Shown here piece by piece: positions 1,100 through 62,100 of a stretch of DNA of 64,000 nucleotides. Each line of letters begins with the position of its first letter. Position 1 is the stretch's first letter. Made by a program: the position numbers and the translations under genes. Under the pieces are notes generated by a model. It did not search any database. It saw only the letters and a program-made list of their open reading frames with translations, and was not told the DNA's origin. Origin of the DNA: Candidatus Woesearchaeota archaeon (lineage in GTDB: Archaea; Nanobdellota; Nanobdellia; Woesearchaeales; DSVV01); the NCBI GenBank assembly GCA_016219865.1, contig JACRKF010000033.1, positions 123,954 to 187,953 of the forward strand, in the 5' to 3' direction.

Positions 1100-2719
1100 A
1101 TGCCAGAACCTCGCCCAGTTGAAGAAGCAAATGAACCAAATGAACCATTACGAAGAGACTTCTCATTATTGGAAGAAACAGCAAAAGGCGCAGCAAGTTT
1201 TCTAGGATTAGTTGCCCGATTTGCAACAAGCGCAGAAGATATTGTTCAAGGCTTGCGTTTGGAAAAGCATGAAAGAGAAGCAGAAATTGATTTTGCTGAT
1301 TACATTTGCCAAGATTTATTGCAGGACGATACAATCACGCAGCAATTATTCACTGATGTTCTCACAGGATATTTGAACGAAGTGCCGAATGATTTGTATA
1401 TTGTTGGATTTCACGAAACAAGCTATGGCCGTGGTCAAGCATTGCGAGATCAAGATCCAATTGCAAGAAACATTTCTTCATACGATTTTCAGATAAATGC
1501 ATGGAAATCAAAATTATATCATGATAAAAAAGCAAATATTGACAGAGTAATTGCTGATCTTGAAACTCGATTGCAGACTCTTATTCAGCAAGAAAGAAGA
1601 AATACAGTTGAAGAAGTTGGCTCATTATTTTCAGCAGATGCATTTTCTTTGTTATTAATAGAAGGAATGCATGTCAATGGAGATTTGCGAGGAAGTTTAG
1701 CTGTATTGAAAAAGAAAATGTATTTTGCAGCAGCTTTTGAATACAAAGAAGATCCAGAACTATTATACAGATTATCATTCAATGCCTGCGTCAAAGCAAA
1801 AGGCTGGCAAACATTGGAAGACAAACCATTGTATGAAGCATTGGAAGCAGAAGATGTTTCAGTTGAAGTTTTTGAAAAATGGACTGGCAGAAAAATTAAT
1901 TATAACCCAAAACCAGAAGCAAAGCAAAAAACAGTTGCTGATGTTATTCATGCACAAGGTGCAGATCCGCCAAGAAAAGCTTCGATTGCATTAGTCCATG
2001 AATTCCTGCCTAGTCAATCAACCTACGCGCAAGGTGTTCATGCATTGAGAGCTTCATACAATGGAAAAGAAGCAGAGATTCCGCAGCATATGCTTTATAG
2101 AACAAGTGCTGGAGTAAGACTTATCCGTCCACAAACATTAGAAGAAGCAATGCTTGCTCGTATCAATGATTTTGATACACTTCAAGATTCAAATGGCAAG
2201 CAAAGAACAATGGAAGAACGATTGAGATTGTGGGATAAACTAATTGATACTTGTGCAGGAGTTGCTTATGAAAACGGTAACAATGAACATTTTAAACTTA
2301 GCAGCATTTGTGAACCATTGATTACAATACCGCAAGATTTCAGAAACGCTTTTTTAGATGTAAATTATGCAGCTTTTGATGGCATCCAATTAGCAAGAAC
2401 TGCATATTACTACAAAAGATTATCAGAGCAAGAGTTTGATCTTTGTGAAGCATGGCAGCTGCTTTTACCAGATCAAACTGCAAGAACAAGATTGAAACAA
2501 ATAGTCTATCATCAAGCTAAAAACCAACAAGAACAGCTGTTAATTGCAGATAATGACAAAAAAGCATTAGGGTTTTATCTAGTAAATAATTCAGATAGAG
2601 ACCAACTGAGGAGCGTGTTTGTGAGCAGTCGTAATAACTACTCGGATGCGTATGGCGTCAATCTCAACGGCAGCTCGTCCGTTTTGCGAGCGACTCCCCC
2701 ATCGTCAAAAAAATTTTAG
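1100..2719 (+). CDS. DGR target protein (539 aa), with the variable repeat in its last ~35 codons
   Basis: Intact ORF. Its C-terminal ~97 nt is near-identical to a second copy ~230 nt downstream of its stop (the TR). Mismatches concentrate at TR adenines. A DGR-type RT gene follows. Confidence 0.75.
   Translation: MPEPRPVEEANEPNEPLRRDFSLLEETAKGAASFLGLVARFATSAEDIVQGLRLEKHEREAEIDFADYICQDLLQDDTITQQLFTDVLTGYLNEVPNDLYIVGFHETSYGRGQALRDQDPIARNISSYDFQINAWKSKLYHDKKANIDRVIADLETRLQTLIQQERRNTVEEVGSLFSADAFSLLLIEGMHVNGDLRGSLAVLKKKMYFAAAFEYKEDPELLYRLSFNACVKAKGWQTLEDKPLYEALEAEDVSVEVFEKWTGRKINYNPKPEAKQKTVADVIHAQGADPPRKASIALVHEFLPSQSTYAQGVHALRASYNGKEAEIPQHMLYRTSAGVRLIRPQTLEEAMLARINDFDTLQDSNGKQRTMEERLRLWDKLIDTCAGVAYENGNNEHFKLSSICEPLITIPQDFRNAFLDVNYAAFDGIQLARTAYYYKRLSEQEFDLCEAWQLLLPDQTARTRLKQIVYHQAKNQQEQLLIADNDKKALGFYLVNNSDRDQLRSVFVSSRNNYSDAYGVNLNGSSSVLRATPPSSKKF
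2604..2700 (+). repeat. DGR variable repeat (VR), encoding ...LRSVFVSSRNNYSDAYGVNLNGSSSVLRAT
   Basis: Aligns with TR at 2929-3030. VR bases g/c/t sit opposite TR 'a' at at least 13 positions; only 2 non-A mismatches, near the 3' end. Confidence 0.75.
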
Positions 2720-2928
2720 GACATTTTTTCCAAAAAGTTTATAATAACATGAATTTAATTCTTTCTTGAGCCTTGCCATCGTTCCTCTGCAAAGGACTTT
2801 GGAAACGTGCTTGGGAGTTACAGGCTCTTTCACTAAGGTTTTATTCCAGCTGGAGTAAAATCATAAAATACAGCTCCGACTTGATGCTCTGCACTGAAGG
2901 AGCAGTGCTCAGAAGAAGTGAAAGGGCT

Positions 2929-3030
2929 ACTGAGGAGCGTGTTTGTGAAAAATCGTAATAACAACTCGAATGCGAATGGCAACAACAATCTCAACAACAG
3001 CTCGTCCTTTTTGCGAATAACACAAGCATC
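2929..3030 (+). repeat. DGR template repeat (TR); AAY (Asn) codon-rich in the VR reading frame
   Basis: In frame it reads LRSVFVKNRNNNSNANGNNNLNNSSSFLRIT. It is one codon longer than VR, and its 3' end diverges (an IMH-like, GC-richer segment is present only in VR). Confidence 0.7.
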
Positions 3031-3222
3031 AAGGCTTATTATTAAAATTATGTTGGTATTTTTTATGCAATCTTCAGAATCTTTGTATGAACAATTATGT
3101 TCTTATCAAAATCTTGAATTGGCATTCAAAAAGCAAGAAAAAGAAAAACAACAAAATTATATGTTCTGGAATTTGAGAAAGATCTTAAAGAGAATCTTCT
3201 TCAATTACAAGCTGAATTAGTA

Positions 3223-4272
3223 TTGCATTCATATCGTCCAGAAAAATTGGAAACTTTTATTCTTCGTGATCCTAAAACAAGAAAGATAAGCAAATCACAT
3301 TTTAGAGACAGAATTGTGCATCATGCATTGTGTAATATAATCCAAACATTATTTGAAAATAGCTTTATTCATGATTCTTATGCAAACCAGATTGGAAAAG
3401 GAACACTAAAAGCAATACAAAGGTTTGATGAATTTAAGATAAAGATTACAAAGAACAATACAAGAATTGCTTTTGTGTTAAAATGCGACATAAAGCAATA
3501 TTTTGATAATGTTGATCATAATATTTTACTATCAATTATTAAGAGAAAGGTTTCTGATAGAAAAATACTATGGCTCATCGAAACAATTCTTTCAAATTAC
3601 TGCTCAAAAGAGCATAGTAAAGGAATGCCATTAGGCAATTTAACTTCTCAGTTCTTCGCAAATGTATATCTCAATGAACTTGACCAATTTGTGAAGCATG
3701 AATTAAGAGCAAAGTACTACCTGCGCTATGTTGATGATTTTGTTATTTTCGATAATTCTAAGAGAAGATTAGAGCAGTATAAAGCAGTAATTCAGATTTT
3801 CCTTAAGCAAGAATTACAGCTTCAATTGCATCCATTAAAATCAAGAATAATAACAATAAGAGATGGGACTGAATTTTTGGGTGTAAAAATATTTATGCAC
3901 CACAAAAGGATAAGGAAGAAAAATCTGCGGAAATCTCAGAAGAAATTGCAATTGCTAAATAATTTATACGAGCAAAAGAAAATAGACTATGATAATATCT
4001 ACGAGTTCCTTGAAGGCTGGATTGCCTATACAAGAAACGCAAACACTTATAAGTTAAGGAAAAGCATTATTAATTCAGTTGAGCAGAGATTTGGAATGAT
4101 TGCAACGAGAGAAGTCAATAGACATATTAAGAAATTCTATCCCTTTCCAATCCTCTCTAGCACAGCTTTTATCACAAATGGCAGCGCAACAGTTGCATCA
4201 ATCAACACTTCTGCATACCTTCCGCCTTTACTCTCTGGAATAAACTTTCCCCAGCTGACACCTTCACTATAA
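3223..4272 (+). CDS. DGR-type reverse transcriptase. The track ORF starts at 3223; the N-terminal RT0 segment appears to be encoded upstream in another frame (~3050-3160).
   Basis: Motifs FRDRIVHHALCNI, PLGNLTSQFFANVYLNELD (the [I/L]GxxxSQ motif that separates DGR RTs from group II intron RTs, which have QGxxxSP) and YLRYVDDFVIF (YxDD). Frame +1 upstream of 3223 reads ...YVLEFEKDLKENLLQLQAEL but has no start codon. The +2 frame upstream reads ...ESLYEQLCSYQNLELAFKKQEKEK, like the canonical RT N-terminus. Confidence 0.8.
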   Translation: MHSYRPEKLETFILRDPKTRKISKSHFRDRIVHHALCNIIQTLFENSFIHDSYANQIGKGTLKAIQRFDEFKIKITKNNTRIAFVLKCDIKQYFDNVDHNILLSIIKRKVSDRKILWLIETILSNYCSKEHSKGMPLGNLTSQFFANVYLNELDQFVKHELRAKYYLRYVDDFVIFDNSKRRLEQYKAVIQIFLKQELQLQLHPLKSRIITIRDGTEFLGVKIFMHHKRIRKKNLRKSQKKLQLLNNLYEQKKIDYDNIYEFLEGWIAYTRNANTYKLRKSIINSVEQRFGMIATREVNRHIKKFYPFPILSSTAFITNGSATVASINTSAYLPPLLSGINFPQLTPSL

Positions 4273-6410
4273 GTGCAACCACTATTAGATACAATGATGC
4301 CATTTGCTGCAAAATTATGGGTATTATCGACAGTCATATCATACGTTTCTTCTTCTCCATAATATTCAATAGACATAATAAAATGGTTTTCAACGCAATT
4401 CTTTCTAATCCAATTTTTATCAATTGTATATCGCTTTAATCTTTTATGCAACACTTTATCACTAACACCTAAATTTCGAGCTGTTTTAGTTATAACTCCA
4501 TGGTCTTTTATAAGTGCATCCTTTACTTTATCCTCAGTTATTCCTTTGATCCATCTACCATTTTTTTCATGAGATACAATTATAGATCGCATTTCAGGAG
4601 AAAGGGAAGCCCAACGCATTGCTGTTGAAGCATGTGCATTTTGTAATCTTATTTTTCTTTCTACATCATTAAGTGAGCTCCAGTATTTCTTAGATACTTT
4701 TGACCTTCTTTCTGGTTCTCCATTATTAAGAGCAATAATTTTTCTCTGATTGCATAATCTTTCATATTCTTCATCACTTAAATTATCCCAGAATTTTCGA
4801 GACATTCTCTGCATAATATAAGGATCGCAAATTTCTCGGAGTGTTTGTGCTCTTTTTTCTAAAGTTTCTTTTGACTCATTGAAGCGGTGGTATCTTGCAT
4901 GTTCTATAAAATTCAACATTTCAAGATTTTCAAGAGAATTATTTAATGTATTATGATCTTTGTGGTGAACTGCAATTTTTGCATCAATTGAAATTCCTGC
5001 CGTTTCTTGTAAAATAAATCTATGTTCTGCTAATTTTGTACCATTATTTAAACTAATAAAGCGATAATCACCATGTTTGTCAGTTTTATAGTATGAATTA
5101 AATGGCATTAACCTATCATTAATTTTCAATTCAGATACTTTTTTATAAACACCTTTACGAAGCAGAAATTTATGGTCTTCAGAAGCTATAATTGAATTAG
5201 TCTTCAGCTCTTGTTTTTTATTTACCCATCCTGTAACCCAGCCATAACTAATTTTATACAAACTTTTTTTACCTGTTTCCAAGACACCACGTACATTTGC
5301 TAATATTATTCTTTTCTTATTTAAATCATAAGAATATACAGGAAAATTTGATTTTCCAGCTAAATTTTTAATAGGTATGCCATCTGGATAAATTGATAAG
5401 TTTCTTGGCATATCTATTTTTGTATCACCCTGCAGGCAAAGTCCGCCGAAATTTACAGGTTCTGGGCATATTCTTACGCCATAAGAAAATTGTTTATGAT
5501 ATTTTTCAGCATCTTTTTGCAATGCAGGATTTGGTTCAATAACCCGCAATCGAATGATGTCTAAATGCGGTCCAACTTGTTGCGCCCAATTTCTTGGCAC
5601 TCCACCGCCAACAGTAAAAATACCTATCTTCTTTGCTTTCAAAACTCGTTCTGTGTAATCAGTCATATCAATAAATGGATCATATTTTAACAATTGTTTT
5701 TCTTCAGCAGCATTCTTCTTATTATACACTGAAAACTCCAATCCAAATTCAGAATCAGTAAATGCTGGAATATACACTGGAATGTTTTTCTCAAATGCAG
5801 ATTTCAATATACCTCTTCCATTGATATGTTTATGCAAGTATCGTCCTAGTTCCTTATTGATCTCTGAACTGCACGTTATTTTATTATGGTCCATGCTTGC
5901 AAGCACTTGGTGTAGGATCACAGCGCCTTCATCCAAATTTGTTTCTGATTCAAGCGTATCATATACTCTATCAAATCCAGCTTCATACAATTCTTCATCA
6001 TTAAAATTTTTTGGATTTTTAAAATGCGTCATTCCAGCAGCTTCAATAAATCCATGCGCCATCAATGCGCCAGTTGACACAACAGCATCAACCATATCAT
6101 TTTCAATCATATCGCAGATAACCAATCCCATCTTTGCCATAGTCATTGCGCCAGAAAGCGTTAATACTTTAAAGCACTCTTTATCTTTTGTCATTGCCTC
6201 AAGCACATTTGCAGCTTCTCCAATCTCTCTGCCGCCAAATGCTGTCAGATTCATCTGTGTAACAACATCATTGACTGTCTTGCATTGGGATAAGTCTAAT
6301 GGTTTCAATGGAACAAGATTTTTGACAAATTGCTCTCGAAACTCTCTGCTATGTCTGCCGTTCATTTTGTCATGTTGAATATGCATTTCATGTTTTTTGA
6401 TTGGAATCAC
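4137..6410 (-). CDS. dys: deoxyhypusine synthase, interrupted by an intein of ~385 aa
   Basis: N-extein has the DHS motifs (LTLSGAMTMAKMGL.., AVVSTGALMAHGFIEAAG, TVGGGVPRNW). C-extein reads SGCTYSEGVSWGKFIP (the active-site Lys region). Between them sits CLQGDTKI...HNFAANGIIVSN with an HNH-like block (HHKDHN...H) and an HTH. Confidence 0.8.
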   Translation of the reverse strand: MIPIKKHEMHIQHDKMNGRHSREFREQFVKNLVPLKPLDLSQCKTVNDVVTQMNLTAFGGREIGEAANVLEAMTKDKECFKVLTLSGAMTMAKMGLVICDMIENDMVDAVVSTGALMAHGFIEAAGMTHFKNPKNFNDEELYEAGFDRVYDTLESETNLDEGAVILHQVLASMDHNKITCSSEINKELGRYLHKHINGRGILKSAFEKNIPVYIPAFTDSEFGLEFSVYNKKNAAEEKQLLKYDPFIDMTDYTERVLKAKKIGIFTVGGGVPRNWAQQVGPHLDIIRLRVIEPNPALQKDAEKYHKQFSYGVRICPEPVNFGGLCLQGDTKIDMPRNLSIYPDGIPIKNLAGKSNFPVYSYDLNKKRIILANVRGVLETGKKSLYKISYGWVTGWVNKKQELKTNSIIASEDHKFLLRKGVYKKVSELKINDRLMPFNSYYKTDKHGDYRFISLNNGTKLAEHRFILQETAGISIDAKIAVHHKDHNTLNNSLENLEMLNFIEHARYHRFNESKETLEKRAQTLREICDPYIMQRMSRKFWDNLSDEEYERLCNQRKIIALNNGEPERRSKVSKKYWSSLNDVERKIRLQNAHASTAMRWASLSPEMRSIIVSHEKNGRWIKGITEDKVKDALIKDHGVITKTARNLGVSDKVLHKRLKRYTIDKNWIRKNCVENHFIMSIEYYGEEETYDMTVDNTHNFAANGIIVSNSGCTYSEGVSWGKFIPESKGGRYAEVLIDATVALPFVIKAVLERIGKG
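4284..5438 (-). mobile_element. intein, with an HNH-type homing-endonuclease-like domain, inside the deoxyhypusine synthase gene
   Basis: Starts with Cys (CLQGDT, block A) at residue 325. Ends ...NGIIVSN followed by Ser (+1) at residue 710. With the intein removed, the extein junction reads NFGGL|SGCTYSEGVSWGK, which is collinear with DHS. Confidence 0.7.
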
Positions 6411-6537: not shown

Positions 6538-7398
6538 ATGATGGAATACAAACAACTTACAGCAGATGTGCAGATTCCTGTCCTTGGTTTAGGGACATGG
6601 CAGATTGGTGGAAGAACAGAAGCTGATTATACTGACGATGAAAAGAATATCAAAGCAATAACTGCAGCAGTACAATTAGGCTACACTTTAATCGACACAG
6701 CAGAATCATATGCTGATGGACACACTGAAGAGTTGGTTGGCAAAGCAATAAAAGGAATTGATCGCAAAAGATTATTTATTGTCAGTAAAGTTATGTCTGC
6801 GCATCTTGCATATAAAAATGTAATAACAGCTGCAAAAAGAAGTTTAGAACGGTTGCAGGCAGATTATTTTGATCTCTATCTGATACACTTTCCAAATGCA
6901 GACATTCCATTAAAGGAAACAATGAGAGCAATGGATCATTTGGTTGAAAAAGGACTCACACGATTTATTGGTGTAAGCAATTTTTCAGTCAAAGAGATGC
7001 AAGAAGCGCAAAAGTATTCAAAAAATAAGATTGTAGTAAATCAAGTGCAGTACAGTCTTATCTCAAGAAATAAATGCACCTATGGTGATTGTATAAATAT
7101 GGAATCAGAAATTATTCCCTATTGCCAAGAAAATAATATTATAATAATGGCAGATCGACCTTTGCATAAAGGGATACTTGTAGAAAAAAACTATCAACAA
7201 TTGGAAAGGTTAAGTAAAAAGTATAACAAAACAAAAGCGCAGATAGCATTGAACTGGCTCATCTCTAAGAAAAATATAATTACAATGCCAATGTCAACAA
7301 ATAGTGAACATTTAAAAGAAAATCTTGGTGTATTAGGTTGGAGATTGGATTTAGAAGATTTAATTCTATTGGACAATACAGTTTTTGAGAAGGAATAA
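6538..7398 (+). CDS. aldo/keto reductase family oxidoreductase
   Basis: LGLGTWQIGG, ..IDTAESYADGH..EELVGKAI and the overall AKR architecture; 286 aa. Confidence 0.8.
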   Translation: MMEYKQLTADVQIPVLGLGTWQIGGRTEADYTDDEKNIKAITAAVQLGYTLIDTAESYADGHTEELVGKAIKGIDRKRLFIVSKVMSAHLAYKNVITAAKRSLERLQADYFDLYLIHFPNADIPLKETMRAMDHLVEKGLTRFIGVSNFSVKEMQEAQKYSKNKIVVNQVQYSLISRNKCTYGDCINMESEIIPYCQENNIIIMADRPLHKGILVEKNYQQLERLSKKYNKTKAQIALNWLISKKNIITMPMSTNSEHLKENLGVLGWRLDLEDLILLDNTVFEKE

Positions 7399-7543: not shown

Positions 7544-7629
7544 AGCCTCAGGGAAGAGTTGAACTCCCGACCTGCGCTTCTCTAGTTAATCATTACGAGA
7601 GCGCCGCTCCACCACTGAGCTACTGAGGC
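7544..7629 (-). tRNA. tRNA-Thr (anticodon CGU) with a 14-nt intron at the canonical 37/38 position
   Basis: Reverse complement: GCCTCAG-TA-GCTC-AGTGGTGGA-GAGC-G-GCGCT-CTCGTA[atgattaactagag]A-AGCGC-AGGTC-GGGAG-TTCAACT-CTTCC-CTGAGGC-T. All four stems pair; U33 and A37 are present; the intron sits after position 37. Confidence 0.7.
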
Positions 7630-12444: not shown

Positions 12445-15057
12445 TCATATTTCTGTATTCGTGCTTCCATGATACGCAACAGGAGAACTTCCACCGTGCC
12501 AGCTTATTCTTGGTCGTATTTTCATCGCATACATTCTTTCATTAGTGTCATCAAAGATAATTGCTGCACCAAATGTGCGCGGCAAATTATCTAATTGTGT
12601 AGTTAATCCTTCTCGCATATAACTTTGCATTAACGTTCCAAGTGCTTCTGTATCGAGTTTTGCTGTTATTCTATGGCTGATAACAGTATCGCTTTGTGTC
12701 ATGACATCTGTATGGATTTTTCCTGGCTGTTGTGTTGCTAAGATTAAAGAAATTCCAGGTTGTCTGCCTTCTCTAAGGATTGTAATTAAAGCATCGCTTG
12801 CTGCAGTTTTTCCAATGACTGGCAAGAACTCATGCGCTTCATCAATAACAAGCCAAACCATTGGCATATCTTGTTTTTCTTGTGGAGTCTCACTAAAATA
12901 ATGCAGCGCTGAATTTACTTGACCAAACTCCTCAAACTTTCTTGCAATCATTCTTTGAACGAATAATTTCTGCGCAATCAATCCAACAACAAGGCTTTTT
13001 ACAGCCCATCCACCTGGCATTGTTGCATAGCATGATACATCAAGAACAGTTACTTGACCCCCAGCAGCTAACTCTAAGAAAGGAGTTCCTTCTTTATCAA
13101 AAAGTCCCCATGATATTGTGTTCAAGAATCTATTTTCAACTGCATCTCGCACTGATTTCTCAGCATTAGTATCTTTTTTTACAGCAGCAATGATATCTTC
13201 AATTCCATAATCTATATTTTGTTCTTTTAATTGATTGACAATCCGTTCGATAAGTACGCCCATAGGATCATTTGCTGTAACATCAAATGTAAGCTGCCAA
13301 TCAGTTGCATCTAACTCACTTGGTTTTATTGAAAAAGGTTTGTCTGTTGGAATTCCTTCTTTTACATATCTTTTATAAAATCCAGCTGGCGTGTATATCT
13401 TGATATCAATAGGTTTTGATTTTAATTGCCATTCTTTCAATATCAGCTCATCTTTTTTATTAGGATATTTCATTGTCCAATAAACACCCATTGTATCAAG
13501 AATGATGACACTAATATTCTGCTTAACTTCATCAGGAAGATCACTAACACCCTCAGCAATGACACCCATTGTATAAGAGTTATGGACGATGATATCGTTT
13601 GCGATAAAATTATGAGTATCAGAAACAGTTAAGTCATATACTTCAAAATTACCTTCGATTTGCTGAAGTGAGATTATTTCATCCCAAAATATATCAGATG
13701 ATGCAAATTTCATAAGTAATTCAAATTCATCAGCTCTTGCAATCTGAAGTAATTTCTGTCGAGATGGAGAATAGCGTTTACTTTCTCTTAATGCTTTTGG
13801 ATGTTTATAACCTATTTTTCTCCCGATCTCTGCCCAATTATTTGGTGCATATAGATCCCATATCTCTTTTGGAATTGTATCAACGTTAGTATTGCGTATT
13901 ACTTGTGGTGATTCTAGTAAAGCAAGAGCAGCTCTTTCTTCTTTTCGTCCATAAAAACCAATTTCATTGATAAATTGATTTACATATTCACCATTAATTA
14001 CCAATTCATAAGCCGTATGAATTTCTTTAATTGTCCTATGCCTTAAGAAAGAAATTATACCAAATCGTAGTAAGAGATGTTGTACTTGTATAATCATTTG
14101 ATATGATGAAGAGCAATAAGAAACAGTCCATGTGCATTCACTTTTTCTATAAATTGTTCCATCACAAGAGAAAAGTCTATTCAAAAACAAAGATAATTGG
14201 TATTTTGGAAGAGTATAGATACATTCAGGTATGAATTTTTCTGGAGCAAGTTTATCATAAAGATTAAACTTTTCTATCCAGCTTCTTATGGAAGAATGAT
14301 CAAAATGAGGATTATTTACAAATTGTCCTTTGTCATTTCTATCACTTTGTTCATTCATCACTTTCTTGATTTGTGCAACACGAAAACAAAATTCATGGCT
14401 ATGATTTTCAACACGAAGATTTTTATCAAAATCATAAATACTTTGTTTGAAGTCATTTATTATCTTTCTATCTGAATTAGTAAATAATACAAAACCATTG
14501 CCAAGATGACCTTCTGCTATTAGGTAAGCAAGCAATTTAACTTCTGATTCTTTGAGATATTTATTTCCGAATGTTTCAACCTTCCTGGGTGTAGCAATTC
14601 TTGATGAAATGGAGAGTTTCTCAGCAGGAATCCATCCTTTTACTGTAAGCAGAGGATGTTCTGGTGTTAATCTTATTTTCTTTCCTGTTCTTAATTCAAT
14701 CTCAAGAAGTCTTGTAACTGAACGTTTATAAAACTGTGTTTTTAAACCTTGTTTTATCTTTAAATCTTCTGATAAAGTATATATGCTTTCATTATTCTCC
14801 GCAAGATCTTTAATTTTTCTAACACTGCCATCTCCTAATGGGATAATTGTATCCCCATCAAGACATTTTCCCCCTCCCCTTTTACCAACGATAAACACAA
14901 CGTGAGATCGGATAACATCAAGATAAATATTATTAGATAAAGAGGTAGTTTGTCCCATCTGGATGTATTGTCTGCCTAAGAATATTACTCCTTTCTTGCC
15001 AAACTTCTTCAGTTCATCCTCTGTTCTTCCAATGACTACGTCAAACATAATTTTCAT
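12445..15057 (-). CDS. HerA/FtsK-superfamily (DUF87-like) ATPase, interrupted by a LAGLIDADG intein in the P-loop
   Basis: Walker A FIVGKRGGGK|[intein]|SYTMGVIAEG; Walker B/DEAH-like VWLVIDEAHEFLP. With the intein removed the protein is about 441 aa. Confidence 0.75.
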   Translation of the reverse strand: MKIMFDVVIGRTEDELKKFGKKGVIFLGRQYIQMGQTTSLSNNIYLDVIRSHVVFIVGKRGGGKCLDGDTIIPLGDGSVRKIKDLAENNESIYTLSEDLKIKQGLKTQFYKRSVTRLLEIELRTGKKIRLTPEHPLLTVKGWIPAEKLSISSRIATPRKVETFGNKYLKESEVKLLAYLIAEGHLGNGFVLFTNSDRKIINDFKQSIYDFDKNLRVENHSHEFCFRVAQIKKVMNEQSDRNDKGQFVNNPHFDHSSIRSWIEKFNLYDKLAPEKFIPECIYTLPKYQLSLFLNRLFSCDGTIYRKSECTWTVSYCSSSYQMIIQVQHLLLRFGIISFLRHRTIKEIHTAYELVINGEYVNQFINEIGFYGRKEERAALALLESPQVIRNTNVDTIPKEIWDLYAPNNWAEIGRKIGYKHPKALRESKRYSPSRQKLLQIARADEFELLMKFASSDIFWDEIISLQQIEGNFEVYDLTVSDTHNFIANDIIVHNSYTMGVIAEGVSDLPDEVKQNISVIILDTMGVYWTMKYPNKKDELILKEWQLKSKPIDIKIYTPAGFYKRYVKEGIPTDKPFSIKPSELDATDWQLTFDVTANDPMGVLIERIVNQLKEQNIDYGIEDIIAAVKKDTNAEKSVRDAVENRFLNTISWGLFDKEGTPFLELAAGGQVTVLDVSCYATMPGGWAVKSLVVGLIAQKLFVQRMIARKFEEFGQVNSALHYFSETPQEKQDMPMVWLVIDEAHEFLPVIGKTAASDALITILREGRQPGISLILATQQPGKIHTDVMTQSDTVISHRITAKLDTEALGTLMQSYMREGLTTQLDNLPRTFGAAIIFDDTNERMYAMKIRPRISWHGGSSPVAYHGSTNTEI
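13579..14865 (-). mobile_element. intein (~429 aa) with a LAGLIDADG homing endonuclease, inserted after the Walker A lysine
   Basis: Starts with Cys (CLDGDTIIPLGDG) and ends ..NDIIVHN followed by Ser (+1). LAGLIDADG-like blocks LAYLIAEGHLGNG and LFLNRLFSCDGTI. Confidence 0.75.
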
Positions 15058-20948: not shown

Positions 20949-20992
20949 CCGGATTACCTAATTTTAGAGAATTTTGCAAAGCAAAATTCTCT
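20949..20992. repeat. PAL2 palindrome, copy 3, preceded by a CGGATTACCTAAT box
   Basis: ccGGATTACCTAATttt AGAGAATTTTGC-aaa-GCAAAATTCTCT. Confidence 0.55.
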
Positions 20993-23095: not shown

Positions 23096-23470
23096 TTATT
23101 TTTCAAGATTCCTCTTAAACGTCTGCGCTATATCTATCATATACTTTCCATCTTCTAACTTATAAATTACAGGCTTTTCTTTATTAAAAAGATTAACTAA
23201 GTCTATCTCAAACTTTCCAGGTTCTACAATTCTTACTGATTCAAAATCAAGGATAACTGGTTCTGTATCAGTTAAATCAAGAATATCAGATATTTGTTCT
23301 TCAACTTCTTGTCGTTGTTGTTCAGAAAGATCTTTTGTAGCTGTCCTCATCTTTTCTATCTGATCCCGCTTAACATAAAAAAACAGCTTGCATCCGCAGC
23401 TGCAACCTTTCAGAATTTCATTTGATCCATCAGAATATAACACATTACATCGTACGCATTGGTGTGGCAT
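23096..23470 (-). CDS. zinc-ribbon protein
   Basis: N-terminal CVRC ... CSCGC zinc-ribbon pattern; 124 aa. Confidence 0.5.
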   Translation of the reverse strand: MPHQCVRCNVLYSDGSNEILKGCSCGCKLFFYVKRDQIEKMRTATKDLSEQQRQEVEEQISDILDLTDTEPVILDFESVRIVEPGKFEIDLVNLFNKEKPVIYKLEDGKYMIDIAQTFKRNLEK

Positions 23471-23542
23471 TGAAAAACCTCATTACCTTTTTATTTCTTT
23501 GTCCTGTAAATTTTCTTATTGTCCGGATTGCCTAATCTAATA

Positions 23543-23580
23543 AAAAATAGATATTTCGTATTTCGAAATGTCTATTTTTT
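23543..23580. repeat. long AT-rich hairpin between two minus-strand genes, followed by a T-tract
   Basis: AAAAATAGATATTTCG-tat-TTCGAAATGTCTATTTTT (one mismatch), followed by tttatttcttttt. A CGGATTGCCTAAT box sits 10 nt upstream. Confidence 0.5.
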
Positions 23581-23979
23581 ATTTCTTTTTGATACTTTCC
23601 TGCTTTTTTGTTCATTGATTGTTGTATAAAGATCAATCTTATGCGGATCTTGTTTAATTTCCTTGACAACGCTCGCTGGGCCAATGATTGTTAATCCGCG
23701 TCTATTTCCAAGAAGTGCATTAATTAATTTTAGCCTTAATCGCTTAAACATAGCATCATCATTTTGTTCAGGATATAACACTGCTAATTCAATACCCCTA
23801 AAGTCTTGATTAATGCTCTTCATTGTTTTTTTGATAAGTGCAGCAGATTCTTCTTTATGCAATGTTCCTTCGACAAGCGCAATCTTATTTTCCTTTACAA
23901 TTGAAAGTAACTTTCCAACTCTTTCATCTGAAGATAATGATTCTATTTCAGTAAATGGAATAAATTGCAGTGTTAGCAT
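23572..23979 (-). CDS. small hypothetical protein co-transcribed with the downstream GTPase
   Basis: 135 aa; lies 6 nt downstream of the preceding gene on the same strand. Confidence 0.5.
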   Translation of the reverse strand: MLTLQFIPFTEIESLSSDERVGKLLSIVKENKIALVEGTLHKEESAALIKKTMKSINQDFRGIELAVLYPEQNDDAMFKRLRLKLINALLGNRRGLTIIGPASVVKEIKQDPHKIDLYTTINEQKSRKVSKRNKK

Positions 23980-38157: not shown

Positions 38158-40254
38158 ATGAGAACAAAAATACTTAATTATGCATTTCTTTTAGCCATAG
38201 CTGTGCTTGTCCTCTTTCCATGGTGGCTTGTATTCAATTCAATAATTACTCAAACAATAATCATCACTCTTTTATTCATTGCATTAATCACAAGCAGACG
38301 ATTGATTGAGAAACATCTGCAAAAATCACAGCAAAATGAAATACAAGATATATCAAAAGATTCGCAGCAAAAATTTCAAATTGCTCTATCAATGGAGAAC
38401 TTTGCAAAATTCTCCGAGGATAAACTAAATCTTTATTTATTTGTCAGACAACGCTGGAAATTTCTAACAATACTTTTTATAGTGCTTTTTATTCTGCATG
38501 CATATGCGTTAACATTTTCAGTATTGCCAATTGATGATGAACATTTTCATGCAGCTAAAGGATTATTCTTCCTAATTCCGATAAAATTAATATTAGATAA
38601 GACAAATATTTTAAGCTATTATTCAATGATTATTTTCTTTCTTTTATTAGTAAAGATAGCGTTGATTTACGCTTTTTACAAGTTTATAACAAAGCGAAAT
38701 ATTGAACCAAATAACTACTTAGAAATGTTATATAAATCAACACCATTGCTGATTATTTTCTTTATATTTATTACTTGTTATCATCTATTGGCTTATTTTA
38801 CAATTCACAAATTCTTCCCAACATTCGCTCAGCAGCAATTCGCCTGGCTTATTCGGTATGGTCCAGTCGGTGCAATATTTAATCTTATTCTCTCATTAAT
38901 TGGGTTTCAAGAATTATTCTTTATTCGTTTGCTGCAATTATTTTTTTCATTTTCTTCTGCAATTGTCTTATATCATATTGCTCAATTTTACATTAGCAAG
39001 AAATCAGCTGCATTTGCAGCAATACTCTTTCTTGTTCTTCCATCTGTATTTTATTTTGGTAGCCATGCATTCATGGAATCTGGAGTTGTTTTTTTTACAC
39101 TGCTGAGTGTTTATTTTTTCTTATTATGGCATCAACAAAGAAACACGCAGAAAAGTTCAGATTATCTGCTTTATGCATTTTTAACATTATTAATCGGTTT
39201 TTTTTACAAAGATGCAATATTATTTATTTTCATAATCTTCGTATTATTCTTGCTGTTTGAGATCAATAAAGATACTATCAAACAATTAACTGTAAAAGCA
39301 AATATGAATAAATTAAAAGATATCTTAAAACTATATTTGAAAGAGTATGCTTCATTTATATTACTCTCTTTTTTCTTTCTTTTCTTCACAGTATTTTGGT
39401 TAACAATTAGAAACAAATACATCACGCAATCATATTCAGCTGGCTATCATTTCATCTTACAAAATATTCTTTCAATATCAAAGCTTAGTATGTATGCAGA
39501 ATTGTCTCCATTAATGTTAACATATCCTATTGCAATAATTGCAGTATTTGGATTTATCTTTCTATTGTTAAAAAAGAAAACTCCGCAAGAAAGGTTGTTA
39601 ATTATATGGATTATTTTATTGTATCTGATATATATGTTATATAATTGGAGTGTTGCAGTTCCAAGGTTTTACATTCATTTTTTACCAGCATTACTGCTGA
39701 TATTCTTCATTTTTACAGAATGGTTATATTCATTTTTCATGTTCAAGAAAAATACTGCAAAACATATTTTCTATATTATACTAATTATTCTAACAGCAGC
39801 AACAACTTTGTATCAAACATATCATGAGATAGAAAACAGATATTGGGATTATGATAATTTGTACAAGTTTATTGGAAACAACGTCAATAAAGATCAAAAG
39901 ATTTTATTCCTCACACATGATGTATATTATTATTTTTTTAAATACAACATCAAAAATCCCATTATCACAGAGAATCAATTTCGAGCTTCTGGAAGAATAC
40001 AAGATTTTGAACAATTATATTCTTATATTATAGCAAACAATGTTAGCTACATTATCTTTCCAAATACAGGAGATCTATACACTAGTGTCAGAATGTACTC
40101 TCCAGATCCTTCAAAAGATAAATTACTAGATGAAGATAGGGCAATTATTCTTCAGTTAAATCAAAAACTGGCAGAAATAGACAAAAAAGATAATCTGCAG
40201 ATATTCATTTCAGGGAGCAATATCTTGTATCTAATAAAGGTAGAAAAGAAATAA
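38158..40254 (+). CDS. GT-C fold membrane glycosyltransferase (PMT/ArnT-like, GT39/GT83 family)
   Basis: Polytopic (>10 TM) protein with a DDEHFHAAKG loop motif like the DE(V)HFGK motif of PMT/ArnT enzymes, and a C-terminal soluble domain. Confidence 0.6.
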   Translation: MRTKILNYAFLLAIAVLVLFPWWLVFNSIITQTIIITLLFIALITSRRLIEKHLQKSQQNEIQDISKDSQQKFQIALSMENFAKFSEDKLNLYLFVRQRWKFLTILFIVLFILHAYALTFSVLPIDDEHFHAAKGLFFLIPIKLILDKTNILSYYSMIIFFLLLVKIALIYAFYKFITKRNIEPNNYLEMLYKSTPLLIIFFIFITCYHLLAYFTIHKFFPTFAQQQFAWLIRYGPVGAIFNLILSLIGFQELFFIRLLQLFFSFSSAIVLYHIAQFYISKKSAAFAAILFLVLPSVFYFGSHAFMESGVVFFTLLSVYFFLLWHQQRNTQKSSDYLLYAFLTLLIGFFYKDAILFIFIIFVLFLLFEINKDTIKQLTVKANMNKLKDILKLYLKEYASFILLSFFFLFFTVFWLTIRNKYITQSYSAGYHFILQNILSISKLSMYAELSPLMLTYPIAIIAVFGFIFLLLKKKTPQERLLIIWIILLYLIYMLYNWSVAVPRFYIHFLPALLLIFFIFTEWLYSFFMFKKNTAKHIFYIILIILTAATTLYQTYHEIENRYWDYDNLYKFIGNNVNKDQKILFLTHDVYYYFFKYNIKNPIITENQFRASGRIQDFEQLYSYIIANNVSYIIFPNTGDLYTSVRMYSPDPSKDKLLDEDRAIILQLNQKLAEIDKKDNLQIFISGSNILYLIKVEKK

Positions 40255-46401: not shown

Positions 46402-47118
46402 ATGGTAATAAGCAAAAAAAACTGGAAAATATCAATAATCATCCCAACATTTAATGAAAGTAAAAATATAACAACATTAGTTACACAATTATTTGCAATT
46501 GCAAAAAAAGAGAGTTTAAATCTAGAATTAATCATTGTTGATGACAATTCTCCGGATAAAACAGGGGAGATTGCAGAGCAATTAGCTAAAAGATTTCCAA
46601 TCAAGTGCATTCATAGAGAAGGAAAACTAGGTTTAGGCACAGCAGTTGTTGCAGGATTCAAAGCTGCATCTGGCAATATTCTTGGAGTGATGGATGCTGA
46701 CTTAAGTCATCCTCCTGATATTTTTCCTGAGCTTGTTAAGCCAATAATCGAAAATAATTATGATTTAACAATAGGCAGCAGATATGTAAAAGGTGGCGGC
46801 GTAGAAGTTTGGCCATTTCATCGAAAGATAATCAGCCTTGGCGCAACTTATTTAGCATATCCATTAACAAAGATAAAAGATCCTGTTTCAGGATTGTTTT
46901 TCTTCAAGAAAGAAGTAATTGACAATATTGAGCTTGGCGCAAAAGGCTATAAAATTGGTCTGGAGATATTTGTAAAAGGAAATTATAAAAAATACAAAGA
47001 AGTTCCATACATGTTTAGAAATAGGATTTACGGAGAAAGCAAAATAGGCTCAGGAGAATTCGTAGACTACATTAAGAATGTACTAAGATTAGCAAAGTAT
47101 AAGCTGCTCAAGAAATAA
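46402..47118 (+). CDS. GT2 polyprenol-phosphate glycosyltransferase (dolichol-phosphate mannose synthase-like)
   Basis: ISIIIPTFNESKNI, LIIVDDNSPDKTGEIA, MDADLSHPP (the Dpm1 signature). Confidence 0.75.
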   Translation: MVISKKNWKISIIIPTFNESKNITTLVTQLFAIAKKESLNLELIIVDDNSPDKTGEIAEQLAKRFPIKCIHREGKLGLGTAVVAGFKAASGNILGVMDADLSHPPDIFPELVKPIIENNYDLTIGSRYVKGGGVEVWPFHRKIISLGATYLAYPLTKIKDPVSGLFFFKKEVIDNIELGAKGYKIGLEIFVKGNYKKYKEVPYMFRNRIYGESKIGSGEFVDYIKNVLRLAKYKLLKK

Positions 47119-47140
47119 AGAGAACTTTGCAAAATTCTCT
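47119..47140. repeat. PAL2 palindrome, copy 5 (abuts the stop codon of the Dpm1-like gene)
   Basis: AGAGAACTTTGCAAAATTCTCT. Confidence 0.55.
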
Positions 47141-47223
47141 AAAAAGATAAATAAAAATAAAGAAAAAATTAAACGAAGAATGAATAGCCGTATCGTACGC
47201 TTTGTCGTTACATAGGCTATTCA

Positions 47224-56169: not shown

Positions 56170-59100
56170 ATGGAGAAAAAGAGTATTCTAAGTATATTTC
56201 TGTTGATTTCAATCGTCATGTTTTCATCTCTCGCAATTGCTTCTGAAATAGTTTTGACAGGTACCTCTGTTGTTTCTCCATTTAATGTTACAAATGCTTC
56301 TAATGGTCCTTCTGGTGGTATACCTGTATTAGCATTGAAAGTATGGGACAATGGTTCAAGCACACTTGATAGTGTTGTTGTTTCTGTCGGTAATTTAACT
56401 GAAGATTTCAGTGGTGATGGTGATTTAGCAACACTCGGGACAGGTTCAAGTTCAGGATTACAGATCTACAAAGACTCAAATTCAAATGGTGTTTATGAAA
56501 GTGGCACTGATGCGCGATTAACATATTTGGTAACAGATTGGTCATCAAACACAAACAATATGCAAAACGTTACATTCAGCAGTATAAGTGGTTTGACATT
56601 GCCTTCAACAGTTCCTTCAACTGCAAATGTATTTGTTGTGATTAAAATGGTTGCAACACCTTCAAATGGCGCGCAATTCAATGTTTCAGTTTTAAAAGGT
56701 GCAGTTAAATCCTCCGGCAATGCAACAGGTACTGTAAATTCAACTGATGTAAGTTCAGGAAGAGTTTACATTGATACTTTAAATCCTTCAATCGCAGCTG
56801 GATTAGTAAATGCGCAAGTTAATGATACAGACAGAGATGGTTATGTGGACCAAGCACGATTATTATTTAATGAGAATGTTAATGATTCTATTATCTCTAT
56901 TACTGGTATGAGTATTGGTAATTTGAGTAATTTCACAGTAAGTACAAGTTCTGGTGGTTATTTGATGGATGGTTTGACATTCTGGACAGGCGGTACTGCA
57001 AATGATAATGAGTTATATGTCAATTTCACAGAGAATACTTTGATACGGTATACAAATCAATCATTTATGACATTCAATTACAGCACAAATGGTACTGTAA
57101 AAGATATGGCTGGAAACTCATTACAAACAATCACTAACAGGGTGCTTGGTGATGGCGCAGCTCCTATTCTCTTGAACATCACTACTAATGATACTGTGCT
57201 GGATGGTAAAGTAGATGCGCTTGTATTAACATTCTCTGAACCAATTAATGACACATTATTTAATATGAGTGCTTCTCCTGTAGCTTCATTATTCTCTGTT
57301 GCAAATGCTACATGGACAGGTGGCTATGTAAATGATGCAATCATGAGCATCAATCTCAGTCAATCAAATACTACAAAAGATGGTAACTTTACTGGTCATT
57401 TCAATGCAACATATGGTCGTGTTGGTATTGTAGCAGATTTATCAGCATTAAATGATGGTCTTGCAAATGAAAGTAAATTATGGGTAGGCAATATTACTCT
57501 GTTTGCAATAATTGATAGAGTTAGTCCTGTTTTAGAAAGATTTGAAACACTTGATACTGATAACAATGGTTGGTTGGATGCAATTAGAATTAATTTATCT
57601 GAATCAATTAATGATTCAACAATTAATCAAACAGTAGTAAATTTATTTAGTGTAACTCTTGCTACAGGTACAAATAATGAAACTGGTGCTAGCGCAAATA
57701 TGACAGGACAGTTAAACTTTACTGCAACATATGCTAGTGCAGATAGTGCAAATAATAATTTTATATTATTCAACTTTTCAGAACAATTTGCAAAATTAAA
57801 CACATCAGCGGGATTTGCATTAACCTACACATCTATTGGTAATGGTCTTTGTGATTTTGCAAGTGGTGGTGTAAACTGTCTTGTAACTAATGGTACAAAT
57901 GCATCAACAGGAGATAAAGCTCCACCAGTAATAATGAATGGGTTAACATATAATCTAACCATTAATCTTCCATTCCAAGGTTTATCAAGCAATGATTCAA
58001 CAATTGATTATATCAATTTAACCTTATCAGAAAGAGTTACTGCTGGAACAACAGCATCTTCATCATTTAGTTTGTCAGTTAACACTGTTAATGGTTCTGG
58101 AATTGGAAATGTGTTAGTATTGGGAACAAATAATGTAACTGTTGCAAGTATTAGCGCAAATGTAACAATTGGATTAAACGGTTTAGTTGTTGGTACAGGA
58201 AATGTTACATTAAATTATTCAGTTGTAGCTGGTGCATCAATCAATGATAGCAATGGAAACACAATGATTGCAAAAAATGGTATTCTTATAACAGATAATG
58301 TTAGGCCAGTTTTATACCAAGCAGATTATCTAGATAATGATTCAAATGGTTGGGTAGATGCAGTAAGATTAAACTTCACAGAACCAATGAACTTTTCAAG
58401 TCTTGATGCTGCTGTAAACAAAGGTGTTCCATCATCAAGAAACTTTTCAATAAAAGGTATTTCAACAGATCTTGGTGGCAATATAAATTTCACAACAGAA
58501 ATGAACAACACAGGTAATATAACTGGTGGTGTAAGTAGTATTGTATTCTTGTATTGGGCTGGAGCTAATAGAACACACAATACAAGTCCTGTGCTTATTA
58601 TGAATATTAGTGGTGTTGCTGCAGCAGCTCAATCTAATACAACACCTAATGGCGGTAATCCTCTTTCAGATACTTCTGGTCGAGGGTTTGAAGTAATCAA
58701 TGAAACTTCAATTGCTGATAAAGCAGCGCCTGTTATCATGAATGGTATTGCGTATGATGTTGATGCTGATGGTAAAATTGGAAACATCAACTTAACATTA
58801 AGCGAATATGTCAATAGTGGTCAAATGAATACATCAGCATTTAGTATTGTTGTTACAGATGGTACTATTACTGGTAGAAATATTTTAACTCCAGTTGGTG
58901 TTGGTATTACTGTTGGAGCAAATGTTACAATTTCATTCGCTGATTCTGTTGTTGGTACTGGTAATGTTACATTAAACTATACAATGCCTTCAACAGGTGG
59001 AAATTTCAACGATACAGTTGGTAATTTGATGGATAATAAATTCAGCTTTGCAATAATTGATAATGTCACACCTAAATTGCTGGCAAGAAATACTATGGAT

Positions 59101-62100
59101 AATGACAGCAATGGTTGGGTTGAAATGATTCAGTTAAATTTCTCAGAAGAGATTAATGATAGCAGTGTAGCTCAACAAATTGATCAGCTCCTTGCAGGAT
59201 TTGCAGGTAAAAATATAAATTTTTCAGTTGAGATAATCTCTCGTGATGGAGATCCTGCAATCAACTGGACAACAGGTTCAGTTGCAAATGATGCTCTTAT
59301 TTATATTAATTGGAGCACAACAAATGCAACACTCAATAGTACATATAACACATCAGCAACACCTAGAATAAATTATACAAAAGGTATTATATCAGATACA
59401 ATTGGAAATTTTGCTGAAACAAACGCATCAACAGCATCTACAAGAGGCAGTAACTCCGCTGATAACGCAGCTCCAGTTATTATGCACAAATATACAATTG
59501 ATAATGACAGCAATGGATATTTAGATGCAGTTGCAATTAACTTTTCAGAAAATATCAACGATTCAACAGTAGTTAGTACTGATTTTAATATTAGTTTAAT
59601 CAGTGGAAATGGTGTTGCAGTTGACTTCACATGGAATTATCACGGTGATTCAGGAAATAATACATTCATTTATCTGAACTGGTCATTTGTAAACACACAA
59701 TATAAAACAAATGGCACACCAACTGTAAATTATACATCTGGTTCATTAAAAGATTTAGCATCTAGGGCAGAGATTTCATTAGCAACAAGCACTTCTGGAT
59801 TAAACGCATTAGATAGAGCAGTTCCAAGAATCATGAACGTAACAACAGTTGATAATAACAGCAATGGTTGGTTGGAAATGTTGCAAGTGTATTGGTCTGA
59901 ACCAGTGAATGATAATTCATTCAAAGCTTTTGACTTTAATGTCAGTGGTGTAGGTTATGCAACAGCATCTGGTCTTGGTGTAGTTGATTCGCATATATTA
60001 AACTTCACTACAGGAACCTTTGCAAATGATGATATCATCTTTGTAAACTGGTCAATAAATAACACATTAGCTTACAGCACAGTGCATAACACAGGTGCAA
60101 CGCCAGCGATTAATTATACTGCTGGTAACTTATCAGATCTTGCAAATAATTTAGCAGCAACAAACACAACACCTATAACAGCATTAGATCGTGCTACTCC
60201 AAAAGTTATGGATATATTCACAGTTGATAACAACACAAATGGTTACCTTGATGCAGTTGGAATCAACTGGTCAGAAAACATCAATGATCAAACATTTGGT
60301 AATGTAACTAATTTCAACATTAGTCTTATTAATTCAATTGCAGCTGCAGTACGAGTTGACTTTACAACAAATTATCACGGCGACGCATTAAACAACAATG
60401 TTATTTACTTGAATTGGTCATATGCAAGTACAACATTCAACACAAGTGGGCGACCATTGGTGAATTATTCAGCAGGTAATTTATCAGATACAGCAAATAA
60501 TTTAGCGCCAAGCAATACAACTTCAATTACTGCAGCAGATCGCGCATCTCCAGTAATCTGGTCAGCAGTTGCTTCAGATAATACAACAGGATCAAACAGT
60601 TATGACTCAGATGATACTGTAACAATTACATTTAGCGAGCAGATTAACAATGCATCAGTTGGAAACGCATCACCATATATTGTGAATGGTACAAATGCAG
60701 AAGGTATTGAAGCATTGCTTGCAATAAATGGTACAAAGAAATGGAACAACATTTCCTCTGCATTATGGATTAATTCAAACCAAACATTAGTGATTACAGT
60801 ATATAATCAAAACTACACTAATATTAGTGTTGGTGATGTAATTACTCCAAATGGAACATTGCGTGATGTCTTTGGAAACATAATGGGGCAAGGCAACAAT
60901 AATGCAACATTGACTGGAACATTTGATGATACAATCGCTCCATACTTAACAAATGTGCAGACCTATGATAATGACAGCGATGGAAAGATTGATCAGATTA
61001 AGATTACATTAAATGAAGCTGTAATCAATAAGACAAATGCAACTGTAGCAACAACATTCCGTACAGGATTTACTGTTGAAGGATTTACAATAGCTGCATC
61101 GCAAAATGATTCAGGAACAGTAATTGTATTAAACTTAACAGAAACTTCAATCAATACAAGTATAAGACCATGGGTTGCGTACAACAGTGGCATTGGTAAC
61201 TTAACTGATCTTGGAACAAATGCAAACAAATTGGCAACTTTCAATGTAACTGCAAATGATTCAGCAGTTCCAGTTCCAGTGAATGTATCAACATACGATA
61301 ATGACAGTGATGGATTTATTGATTTAATCAATGTTACTTTCAGCGAGCAAGTAAATGATTCATCAATCAATAGATCAAATATCAACTGGACAGATGGTTT
61401 AGGTAATGATGAAATAGGTATTACTGGATTTAATACAGGAACTGGGTTTAATGACAGTTATGTTGAATTTACATTTACTGATAATAAGAACAACACAGGC
61501 GCATTGCCATTCTTCTTGTCAAATGGAACAGGAAGTTCAGATAGTCTAAACTTTATCCTGCAAGATATGGCTGCTGCAGGTGGTGGAAACTTCCTCAAAA
61601 CTGTTACTAACAATACTGTAACAGAAACAGATGGTGCAAAACCTGTGTTCATGCCATTAAATATCACAGATGGAAACTTCAGTAATATTACACGAATGGG
61701 AAGCAACAACGTAACAACATTGTGGTTTAATGTAAGTGAATCTGTAACAAGAATTTCAGTAGTTGTTGGCAATGTTACTGCAACATTGCAAAACAATGAG
61801 TCAACATTTAACAACTTCACATACAGATTAGTGCCAAACTCCTCGAACTCAATTGACACAACAACAGCAACAATAACTATTTCAGCGCTTGATACATCAG
61901 GTTTGAACGCAACAAACGCAACACAATCAGCAATATTCGATTACACGCCGCCTGTTATCTTAAATGTAACTGCGTATGATAGACCAAATGATGATGGTAG
62001 CCATATAAAAGTAATGTGGGGTTCAATACCAGTATCAGACTTTTTAAGATATAATATCTACATTGATGTTGTCAACTCAAGCAGTTTGTCAGGAAAAACA

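Follow-up and report, generated by a model that had tools for sequence, protein, structure and literature searches.

Diversity-generating retroelements (DGRs) of DPANN archaea have been described in Nanoarchaeota (DUSEL4) and Woesearchaeota, where chromosomal elements with AvpA-type target proteins follow the order target protein, template repeat (TR) and reverse transcriptase (RT), have no recognisable Avd, carry a short TR rich in AAC and AAT, and pair a G-rich initiation of mutagenic homing (IMH) site in the variable repeat (VR) with a counterpart, IMH*, that contains GAAT in the TR (PMC4372165; PMC5006420, PDB 5IOO). In the DGR of BPP-1 (mtd-avd-TR-Sp-brt), the priming residue A56 of the spacer RNA (Sp) ends a duplex with TR 118-121, and the cDNA starts opposite TR 117 (bioRxiv 10.1101/2023.10.23.563531). 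Here, we have analysed a 64,000-nt stretch of contig JACRKF010000033.1 from Candidatus Woesearchaeota, a DPANN archaeon (the window, to whose positions all coordinates below refer), and we describe the DGR that lies at 1100-4272. The element has in common with the AvpA-type DGRs all of the features listed above, including the DPANN host (an initial annotation, made from the letters of the DNA, had mentioned that DPANN archaea are among the groups reported to be rich in DGRs), and it is a genuine member of this already known clade (Paul 2015, Handa 2016). It differs from them in that its RT gene is frameshifted.

Our reading, to which we give a probability of roughly 80%, is that of a DGR without Avd, chromosomal and belonging to a DPANN-archaeal clade, which is made up of one RNA unit together with a target gene and an RT gene, and which is most likely disabled by the lesion in its RT gene. 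As a DGR it adds little, since AvpA-type DGRs of DPANN archaea and VR indels at AAC repeats are already known. The part worth pursuing is the clade-wide architecture built on the structured RNA RT-16, which occupies the gap between VR and TR.

That the region is a DGR is supported by its repeats. The final ~100 nt of the target open reading frame (ORF 1100-2719) are repeated 324-327 nt downstream, and when VR (2605-2703) was aligned to TR (2929-3030) with one 3-nt gap, 15 of the 18 substitutions fell at TR adenines, which occupy 35 of the 99 aligned columns (hypergeometric p=5.7e-6). Within the core, taken as far as GCGA, the share was 10 of 11 (p=3.6e-5). The three substitutions at other bases (VR/TR) are G/T at 2681, C/T at 2691 and C/G at 2699. 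The initial annotation had placed the repeats at 2604-2700 and 2929-3030 and counted about 15 differences, at least 13 of them at adenines; alignment confirmed both the repeat, with refined VR boundaries, and the bias. Two TR patterns in which every A was masked as N, jointly spanning most of the TR core, matched only VR and TR in the 64 kb, where no match is expected by chance, and no further VR was found in the window.

The VR core (2605-2689, + strand) encodes LRSVFVSSRNNYSDAYGVNLNGSSSVLR and differs from the TR core (2929-3016, +) by ten A-to-N changes, the single non-A change at G2681 and the deletion of one AAC codon, which lies within the CAACAACAA stretch of TR 2980-2988. Read in the VR frame, TR gives LRSVFVKNRNNNSNANGNNNLNNSSSFLRITQA. 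Twenty-seven of the 30 adenines in the TR core occupy the first or second position of a codon, and there are 12 AAY codons, so that TR is indeed rich in AAC and AAT as had been noted; the accompanying idea that such a template diversifies without creating stops did not stand, as mutation of its sole AAA codon can yield stop codons.

The same signature was found in relatives, which were collected by RT-based scans of genomes and metagenomes (48 loci, labelled L001, L002 and so on). In 14 loci from two RT scans, 70-100% of the TR/VR mismatches, and mostly 100%, are at TR adenines. The TR of the window is ~90% identical to that of the ortholog L001, yet their target proteins are just 52-57% identical. 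Indels beside AAC repeats recur as well, with one-codon deletions in L001 and L010 and a one-codon insertion in L002; VR indels of this kind are known from 7% of DGRs (PMC5758913). L001 and L020, two loci with 99.9% identity to each other, have identical VRs.

At the 3' end of VR is an IMH-like, G+C-rich segment, GCGACTCCCCCATC (2690-2703, +), which is kept in L001 as GTGGCTCCCCCGTC and differs from its A-rich counterpart in TR. Judged from the sequence, IMH would be GCGACTCCCCC and IMH* would be ATAACACAAGC, and both versions are conserved in L001. The relation is the same in L002, and nanoarchaeal DGRs have it as GGGGT versus GGAAT (PMC4372165).

The initial annotation took the DGR to be complete, which it is not, because the RT gene is frameshifted. 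The gene starts with an ATG at 3065, ~35 nt after the end of TR, and its first 23 codons, MQSSESLYEQLCSYQNLELAFKK (3065-3133, +), are followed by the loss of this frame in a run of five adenines at 3128-3132. The rest of the gene continues in the -1 frame (3133-4272, +), as tblastn segments show, and holds the motifs FRDRIVHHALCN, LGNLTSQFFANVYL and YVDDFVIF. When the two frames are joined, the resulting 358-aa protein aligns with residues 6-331 of the BPP-1 bRT (PDB 8ub7) across the junction (E=8.2e-42), and it matches RVT_1 of Pfam (E=2.8e-22). The DGR-type motifs that had been reported are present, including LGNLTSQ of the [I/L]GxxxSQ type, and bRT is the closest solved relative. ORF 3223-4272 (349 aa, TTG start), which had been read as the RT gene, is only part of it, a truncated remnant without the N-terminal extension. 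Since this extension of bRT touches the template:primer duplex (bioRxiv 10.1101/2023.10.23.563531, PDB 8UB7), a protein starting at 3223 would, by analogy, probably be inactive. The locus thus holds a lesson for annotation: a DGR that is complete by eye can have a frameshifted RT, and here a reading based on ORFs mis-defined the RT gene.

Relative to L001 and L025, the lesion is a 1-nt deletion. L001 has six adenines at the site and an intact RT ORF of 357 aa, and L025 reads AAAAAGG there. Over 5,142 bp, the A5 run included, the Logan assembly of SRR12113407 agrees with the window at 100% identity, and because this is an independent assembly, the lesion is not the artefact of one assembler. 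No second copy of the RT or of the target is present in the window. In L025, the RT is also damaged, though at another place, and the damage in a second close relative suggests relaxed selection in the sublineage. Most likely, the element in this genome has been recently disabled or strongly crippled; that the inactivation is probably recent follows from the VR core, in which only one change is not at an adenine.

It is conceivable, though unlikely, that the DGR is still active, and that full-length RT arises when ribosomes slip by -1 at TTC-AAA-AAG (3125-3133), when transcription slips on the A run, or from a minority genotype in the population that has A6. A -1 shift after AAA-AAG would give exactly the conserved AFKK|ARKRK, the 85-nt VR core has the one non-A difference already mentioned, and IMH is intact. 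However, the orthologs encode RT in a single frame (A6 in L001, AAAAAGG in L025), so recoding is not conserved; moreover, the heptamer departs from the canonical X XXY YYZ form, both assemblies have A5, and the damaged RT of L025 suggests relaxed selection, as mentioned.

We return to the reading of the region as an Avd-less DGR. Pfam and NCBIfam searches with the ORFs of the gap, with the flanking genes and with 10 of the window's small ORFs gave no match to Avd, while the positive controls, Avd proteins of RT-14-type relatives, were recovered at E~1e-36 (NF033474), and the earlier statement that no Avd-like ORF is evident was upheld. Likewise, none of the archaeal relatives in which RT-16 adjoins a mapped TR has Avd, and the gap ORFs of the RT-16 loci are without matches. 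Avd is present in ~74% of DGRs and is therefore not universal. Wu et al. found 29% of DGRs to be without an accessory gene, and the question of how DGRs manage without Avd is recognised as open (Wu et al. 2018).

What the initial annotation overlooked is a non-coding component between VR and TR. The RT-16 RNA (Rfam RF03019) spans 2787-2935 (+) and matches the full model, positions 1-158, with a score of 57.1 bits (gathering threshold, 50); its 3' end falls inside the first bases of TR. RT-16 was found in 21 of the 48 loci (~19 distinct), all of archaeal type, and in none of the bacterial-type loci scanned. In all ~15 loci with a mappable TR, its 3' end is a few bases, and at most 18 nt, from the TR 5' boundary. 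In L002 and L024, target, RT-16 and TR are inverted as one unit relative to the RT. RNAalifold, run independently on 14 loci aligned with MAFFT, showed compensatory double changes in 19 of 21 RT-16 pairs, and one RT-16 hairpin has compensatory changes between the window and L001 (UUCC/GGAG versus UUCU/AGAA).

RT-16 was published as a motif near RT genes, and whether it serves retrons or DGRs was left open: Weinberg et al. 2017 (PMC5737381) went no further than associating the motifs RT-1 to RT-19 with RTs, and tied only RT-10, the BPP-1 spacer, to a DGR. No report linking RT-16 with DGRs was found in the searchable library. Here, the motif is placed at the TR 5' edge of Avd-less archaeal DGRs.

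A putative archaeal TATA box, TTTATAAT (2738-2745, +), lies ~25 nt upstream of the conserved 5' end of the RNA. Conservation between the window and L001 starts at 2766, just downstream of this TATA-like box, for which L001 has TTTATATT, and A/T-rich boxes are found at a similar distance in other loci.

The gap could instead encode a small basic protein resembling Avd, for example ORF 2773-2958 (61 aa), a possibility to which we give only a few chances in a hundred. There is such an ORF of 61 aa in the window and one of 47 aa in L001, and nanoarchaeal DGRs have ORFs of Avd-like isoelectric point and size between target protein and RT (Paul et al. 2015, PMC4372165). However, there is no conserved frame open across RT-16 in 20 loci, where the longest open frame is 18 codons in L013 and 36 codons in L011; the gap ORFs had no Avd, Pfam or NCBIfam matches in searches that readily recovered true Avd proteins; and both the above-threshold score of the covariance model and the compensatory changes in the helices speak for an RNA.

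That the RT is a retron or group II intron RT and the repeat an unrelated duplication is extremely improbable: although the top NCBIfam score is to a group II intron RT/maturase model (167 bits) and RT-16 was first proposed as a possible retron RNA, that score is far under the model cutoff of 300, bRT leads the other solved structures by 20 orders of magnitude (E=3.7e-22 is the best value for any RT from a group II intron or a retron), Rfam found no intron RNA domains (window at gathering threshold; 2600-3300 at E<=1), and the adenine-specific mismatches recur in ~15 related loci.

One further RT-16 match should be mentioned here. In L004 (archaeon GW2011_AR5), a 52-bit match at 5636-5767 lies inside an open frame of 453 codons; a TR/VR pair was not found in this locus, and the match may be a degenerate or rearranged copy.

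In the Avd-less DGR proposed here, RT-16 and TR are joined by two long-range pairings. The first is a closing helix, in which GAGCCTTG (2768-2775, +) pairs with CAAGGCTT (3030-3037, +); after the 3' strand come a spacer rich in A/T and, immediately ahead of the start codon of the RT, a T6 run (3059-3064). The helix is present in both the minimum free energy and the centroid fold of 2766-3062. Across loci, the 5' strand is 6-11 nt long, lies at the 5' end of RT-16 or shortly upstream of it, and has its complement 8-19 nt after the conserved GAAT at the TR 3' end, and the sequences involved vary by locus (AGCCTTG, ATCCCAGC, TCCTAGCC, TCCCGGACAGC, GTGCCA, TGCAAGCC, ATGTAAATC, TAGATAAA), falling into at least eight classes. 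The longest Watson-Crick run averaged 8.06 nt for cognate and 5.91 nt for non-cognate combinations (17 loci, permutation p=2e-5); we used such helix lengths after dropping RNA duplex energies because of possible confounding by G+C content. The helix probably involves the 5' end of the transcript.

In the second pairing, the invariant A of the RT-16 junction C(U/C)ACA is the last of 7 nt that pair with the 7 nt beginning at the invariant U of GAAU. In the window, these are the junction strand 2814-2820 (GGAGTTA), which ends at the invariant A2820, and 3018-3024 (TAACACA) of the IMH*-like TR end (3017-3030, +), giving 7 bp. Over all loci, 84.8% of cells were paired, compared with 73.5 +/- 2.3 after shuffling, where none of 500 shuffles came as high; both sides change in six of the seven pairs, and controls in which the strands were slid reached at most 41%. 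U3018 is invariant and is not copied into VR. Of the positions other than A, it is the first where the two repeats differ, which fits initiation just 5' of it. The RT-16 3' end (GGGCTA) was also tried as the partner of IMH* and was rejected, with cognate combinations no better than non-cognate ones (p=0.15; p=1.5e-4 for the junction strand).

These observations could be combined into a mechanism. The target gene, with VR in its lectin domain, is followed by the putative promoter, by a non-coding RNA unit consisting of the 5' closing strand, RT-16, TR and the 3' closing strand, and by the RT gene. The RNA would be a permuted one, in which the structured domain lies 5' of TR and a terminal helix brings the start of the transcript together with the nucleotides that immediately follow TR. 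Upon folding of the unit, the junction:TR-end duplex could serve as the template:primer duplex, comparable to Sp53-56:TR118-121 in BPP-1; the RT would then copy TR toward RT-16, misincorporating opposite adenines, and VR would be replaced by the cDNA under the guidance of IMH. Slippage of the RT on AAC repeats could account for the codon missing from VR, and likewise for the one-codon indels of L001, L010 and L002. As the RT is disabled, the present VR would be the product of past retrohoming. More tentatively, and by analogy with BPP-1, RT-16 may act as a cis scaffold that replaces Avd in a permuted BPP-1-type RNA, with the 2'-OH of A2820 priming cDNA opposite A3017; we would give this reading as a whole well below an even chance.

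The comparison with BPP-1 rests on a homologous RT that includes the N-terminal extension, on adenine-specific mutagenesis, on the same IMH/IMH* logic, and on a short duplex of the template:primer kind, whose terminal, invariant A pairs with the base that lies 3' of the nucleotide templated first. There are also clear differences. BPP-1 has Avd and the window does not; the structured RNA is 3' of TR in BPP-1 (Sp, Rfam RT-10) but 5' of TR in the window (RT-16), where the spacer between TR and RT is only ~35 nt long; in the closing duplex, the upstream strand adjoins TR in BPP-1 whereas it is ~150 nt from TR in the window; and the first templated base, a G in BPP-1, would be an A here. The two long-range pairings, which the covariation supports, would recreate the geometry of the template:primer and stop duplexes of BPP-1, as far as the analogy carries. 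With RT-16 at the TR 5' edge and two covarying long-range pairings, the clade offers a testable answer to the question of how Avd-less DGRs work. If the answer is true, it would amount to a minimal two-component system for adenine mutagenesis, an RT and an RNA of ~300 nt, that is of interest to DGR engineers.

Several points weigh against our reading, in part or as a whole. Both assemblies are possibly built from the same reads, so that a systematic sequencing error at the A-run could conceivably lie behind the shared A5. With a single non-A difference in the VR core, any inactivation must have happened recently, or else the element may be functional even now. The junction:TR-end helix has a C.A mismatch at position 3 in 6 of 16 loci, and GGGCTA at the RT-16 3' end nearly repeats the junction strand and could pair in its place. 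Some phylogenetic relatedness among loci is left by the covariation controls. The priming role of A2820 would be an analogy to BPP-1. Finally, a GC-rich hairpin or cruciform downstream of VR was not found, with fold z-scores of ~0.

RT-16 may not be the only such RNA. In three related loci, L027-L029, whose RT identity is 39-42%, the Rfam motif RT-14 (RF02921) is present (for example at 901-1055 of L028), with a position between TR and RT in L028 and L029. These loci are like the window in having a DGR RT, an A-biased TR/VR pair and a structured Rfam "RT" motif adjoining TR; they are unlike it in their order, VR-avd-TR-RT-14-RT, in having Avd, and in carrying the RNA 3' of TR. RT-14, too, may be an orphan "RT" motif that can be assigned to the spacers of DGRs. 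For L028, the presence of an Avd gene between VR and TR was confirmed (NF033474, E~1e-36), as it was for L032, which has neither RT-14 nor RT-16.

The target gene (1100-2719, +) encodes 539 aa, is annotated by NCBI as HZA96_04640 "hypothetical protein", and consists of an N-terminal region of ~290 aa, found in few family members, and a C-terminal domain (nt 1967-2716). The target sequence had no match in Pfam, NCBIfam or PDB searches, and a word index gave one homolog, at 52% identity. The last 250 aa were modelled as the C-type lectin fold of AvpA with confidence, at a predicted local distance difference test (pLDDT) score of 92.8, and the predicted domain has the AvpA variant of the fold, with inserts 3 and 4; this bears out the suggestion of a C-type lectin-like fold made earlier. 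In the AF2 model, VR contributes a strand (residues 213-219 of the domain), a loop and a strand (240-243). A full-length model from 2 sequences reached a pLDDT of 34. Similarity to AvpA is not seen in the sequence: identity is 8%, the family profile has no PDB match at E<=1, and the AvpA motifs GxxVVVYAH, HPxxxPFxG and RFxGV are not shared by the target. AvpA differs also in having 46 residues after VR, which in the window is at the extreme C-terminus, and in lacking the ~290-aa N-terminal region.

No transmembrane segment or signal-like N-terminus was seen in the target, whose most hydrophobic 19-mer scores 1.23 on the Kyte-Doolittle scale, in agreement with the absence of a signal peptide noted at first. 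Such features are likewise absent from archaeal DGR targets, for which Roux et al. 2021 (PMC8144416) left the question of location open. An intracellular target is compatible with this lack.

The cassette is located between the 3' part of dnaG (ORF 110-766) and a convergent deoxyhypusine synthase (DHS) gene. The flanking genes are housekeeping genes, and the order dnaG, target, RT-16, TR, RT and, further on, DHS is common to the window and L001. The element is chromosomal and apparently vertically inherited. Among viral contigs there was one distant relative only (35% identity), which gives no sign of a viral clade. RT homology stops near 4137, so the final ~135 nt of the open frame (4137-4272), antisense to the 3' end of the DHS gene, are probably antisense read-through. 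The same convergent overlap of RT frame and DHS gene is seen in L025.

We would like to point out some other features of the window. The DHS gene (4137-6410, -) carries an intein with an HNH endonuclease domain and encodes 757 aa in total, while the L001 ortholog has 372 aa and no intein. A second intein-like C-terminal splicing motif, YDLTVSDTHNFIANDIIVHNS, at 13543-13653 (-) in ORF 12445-15057 (870 aa) makes it seem that the window holds two intein-bearing genes. A perfect 23-nt direct repeat, ATTTTGTAATCTTATTTTTCTTT, at 798-820 and 4638-4660 (+) flanks the whole target-TR-RT cassette; its second copy is inside the DHS intein, where it encodes RKIRLQN, and an imperfect inverted copy lies at 7262-7285. 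A palindromic element resembling AGAGAACTTTGCAAAATTCTCT occurs at four sites (818-843, 20962-20981, 38395-38414 and 47110-47144) and may be a terminator or a regulator site. At 7544-7629 (-), Rfam detects an 86-nt tRNA (52 bits) where ARAGORN finds none, which may be an intron-containing archaeal tRNA. The genes of the origin-associated proteins OapC and OapB are adjacent at 23096-23979 (-), and this suggests a replication origin nearby. The ORF at 56170-62772 (+), of 2,200 aa and with a hydrophobic N-terminus, is likely to encode a giant surface protein.

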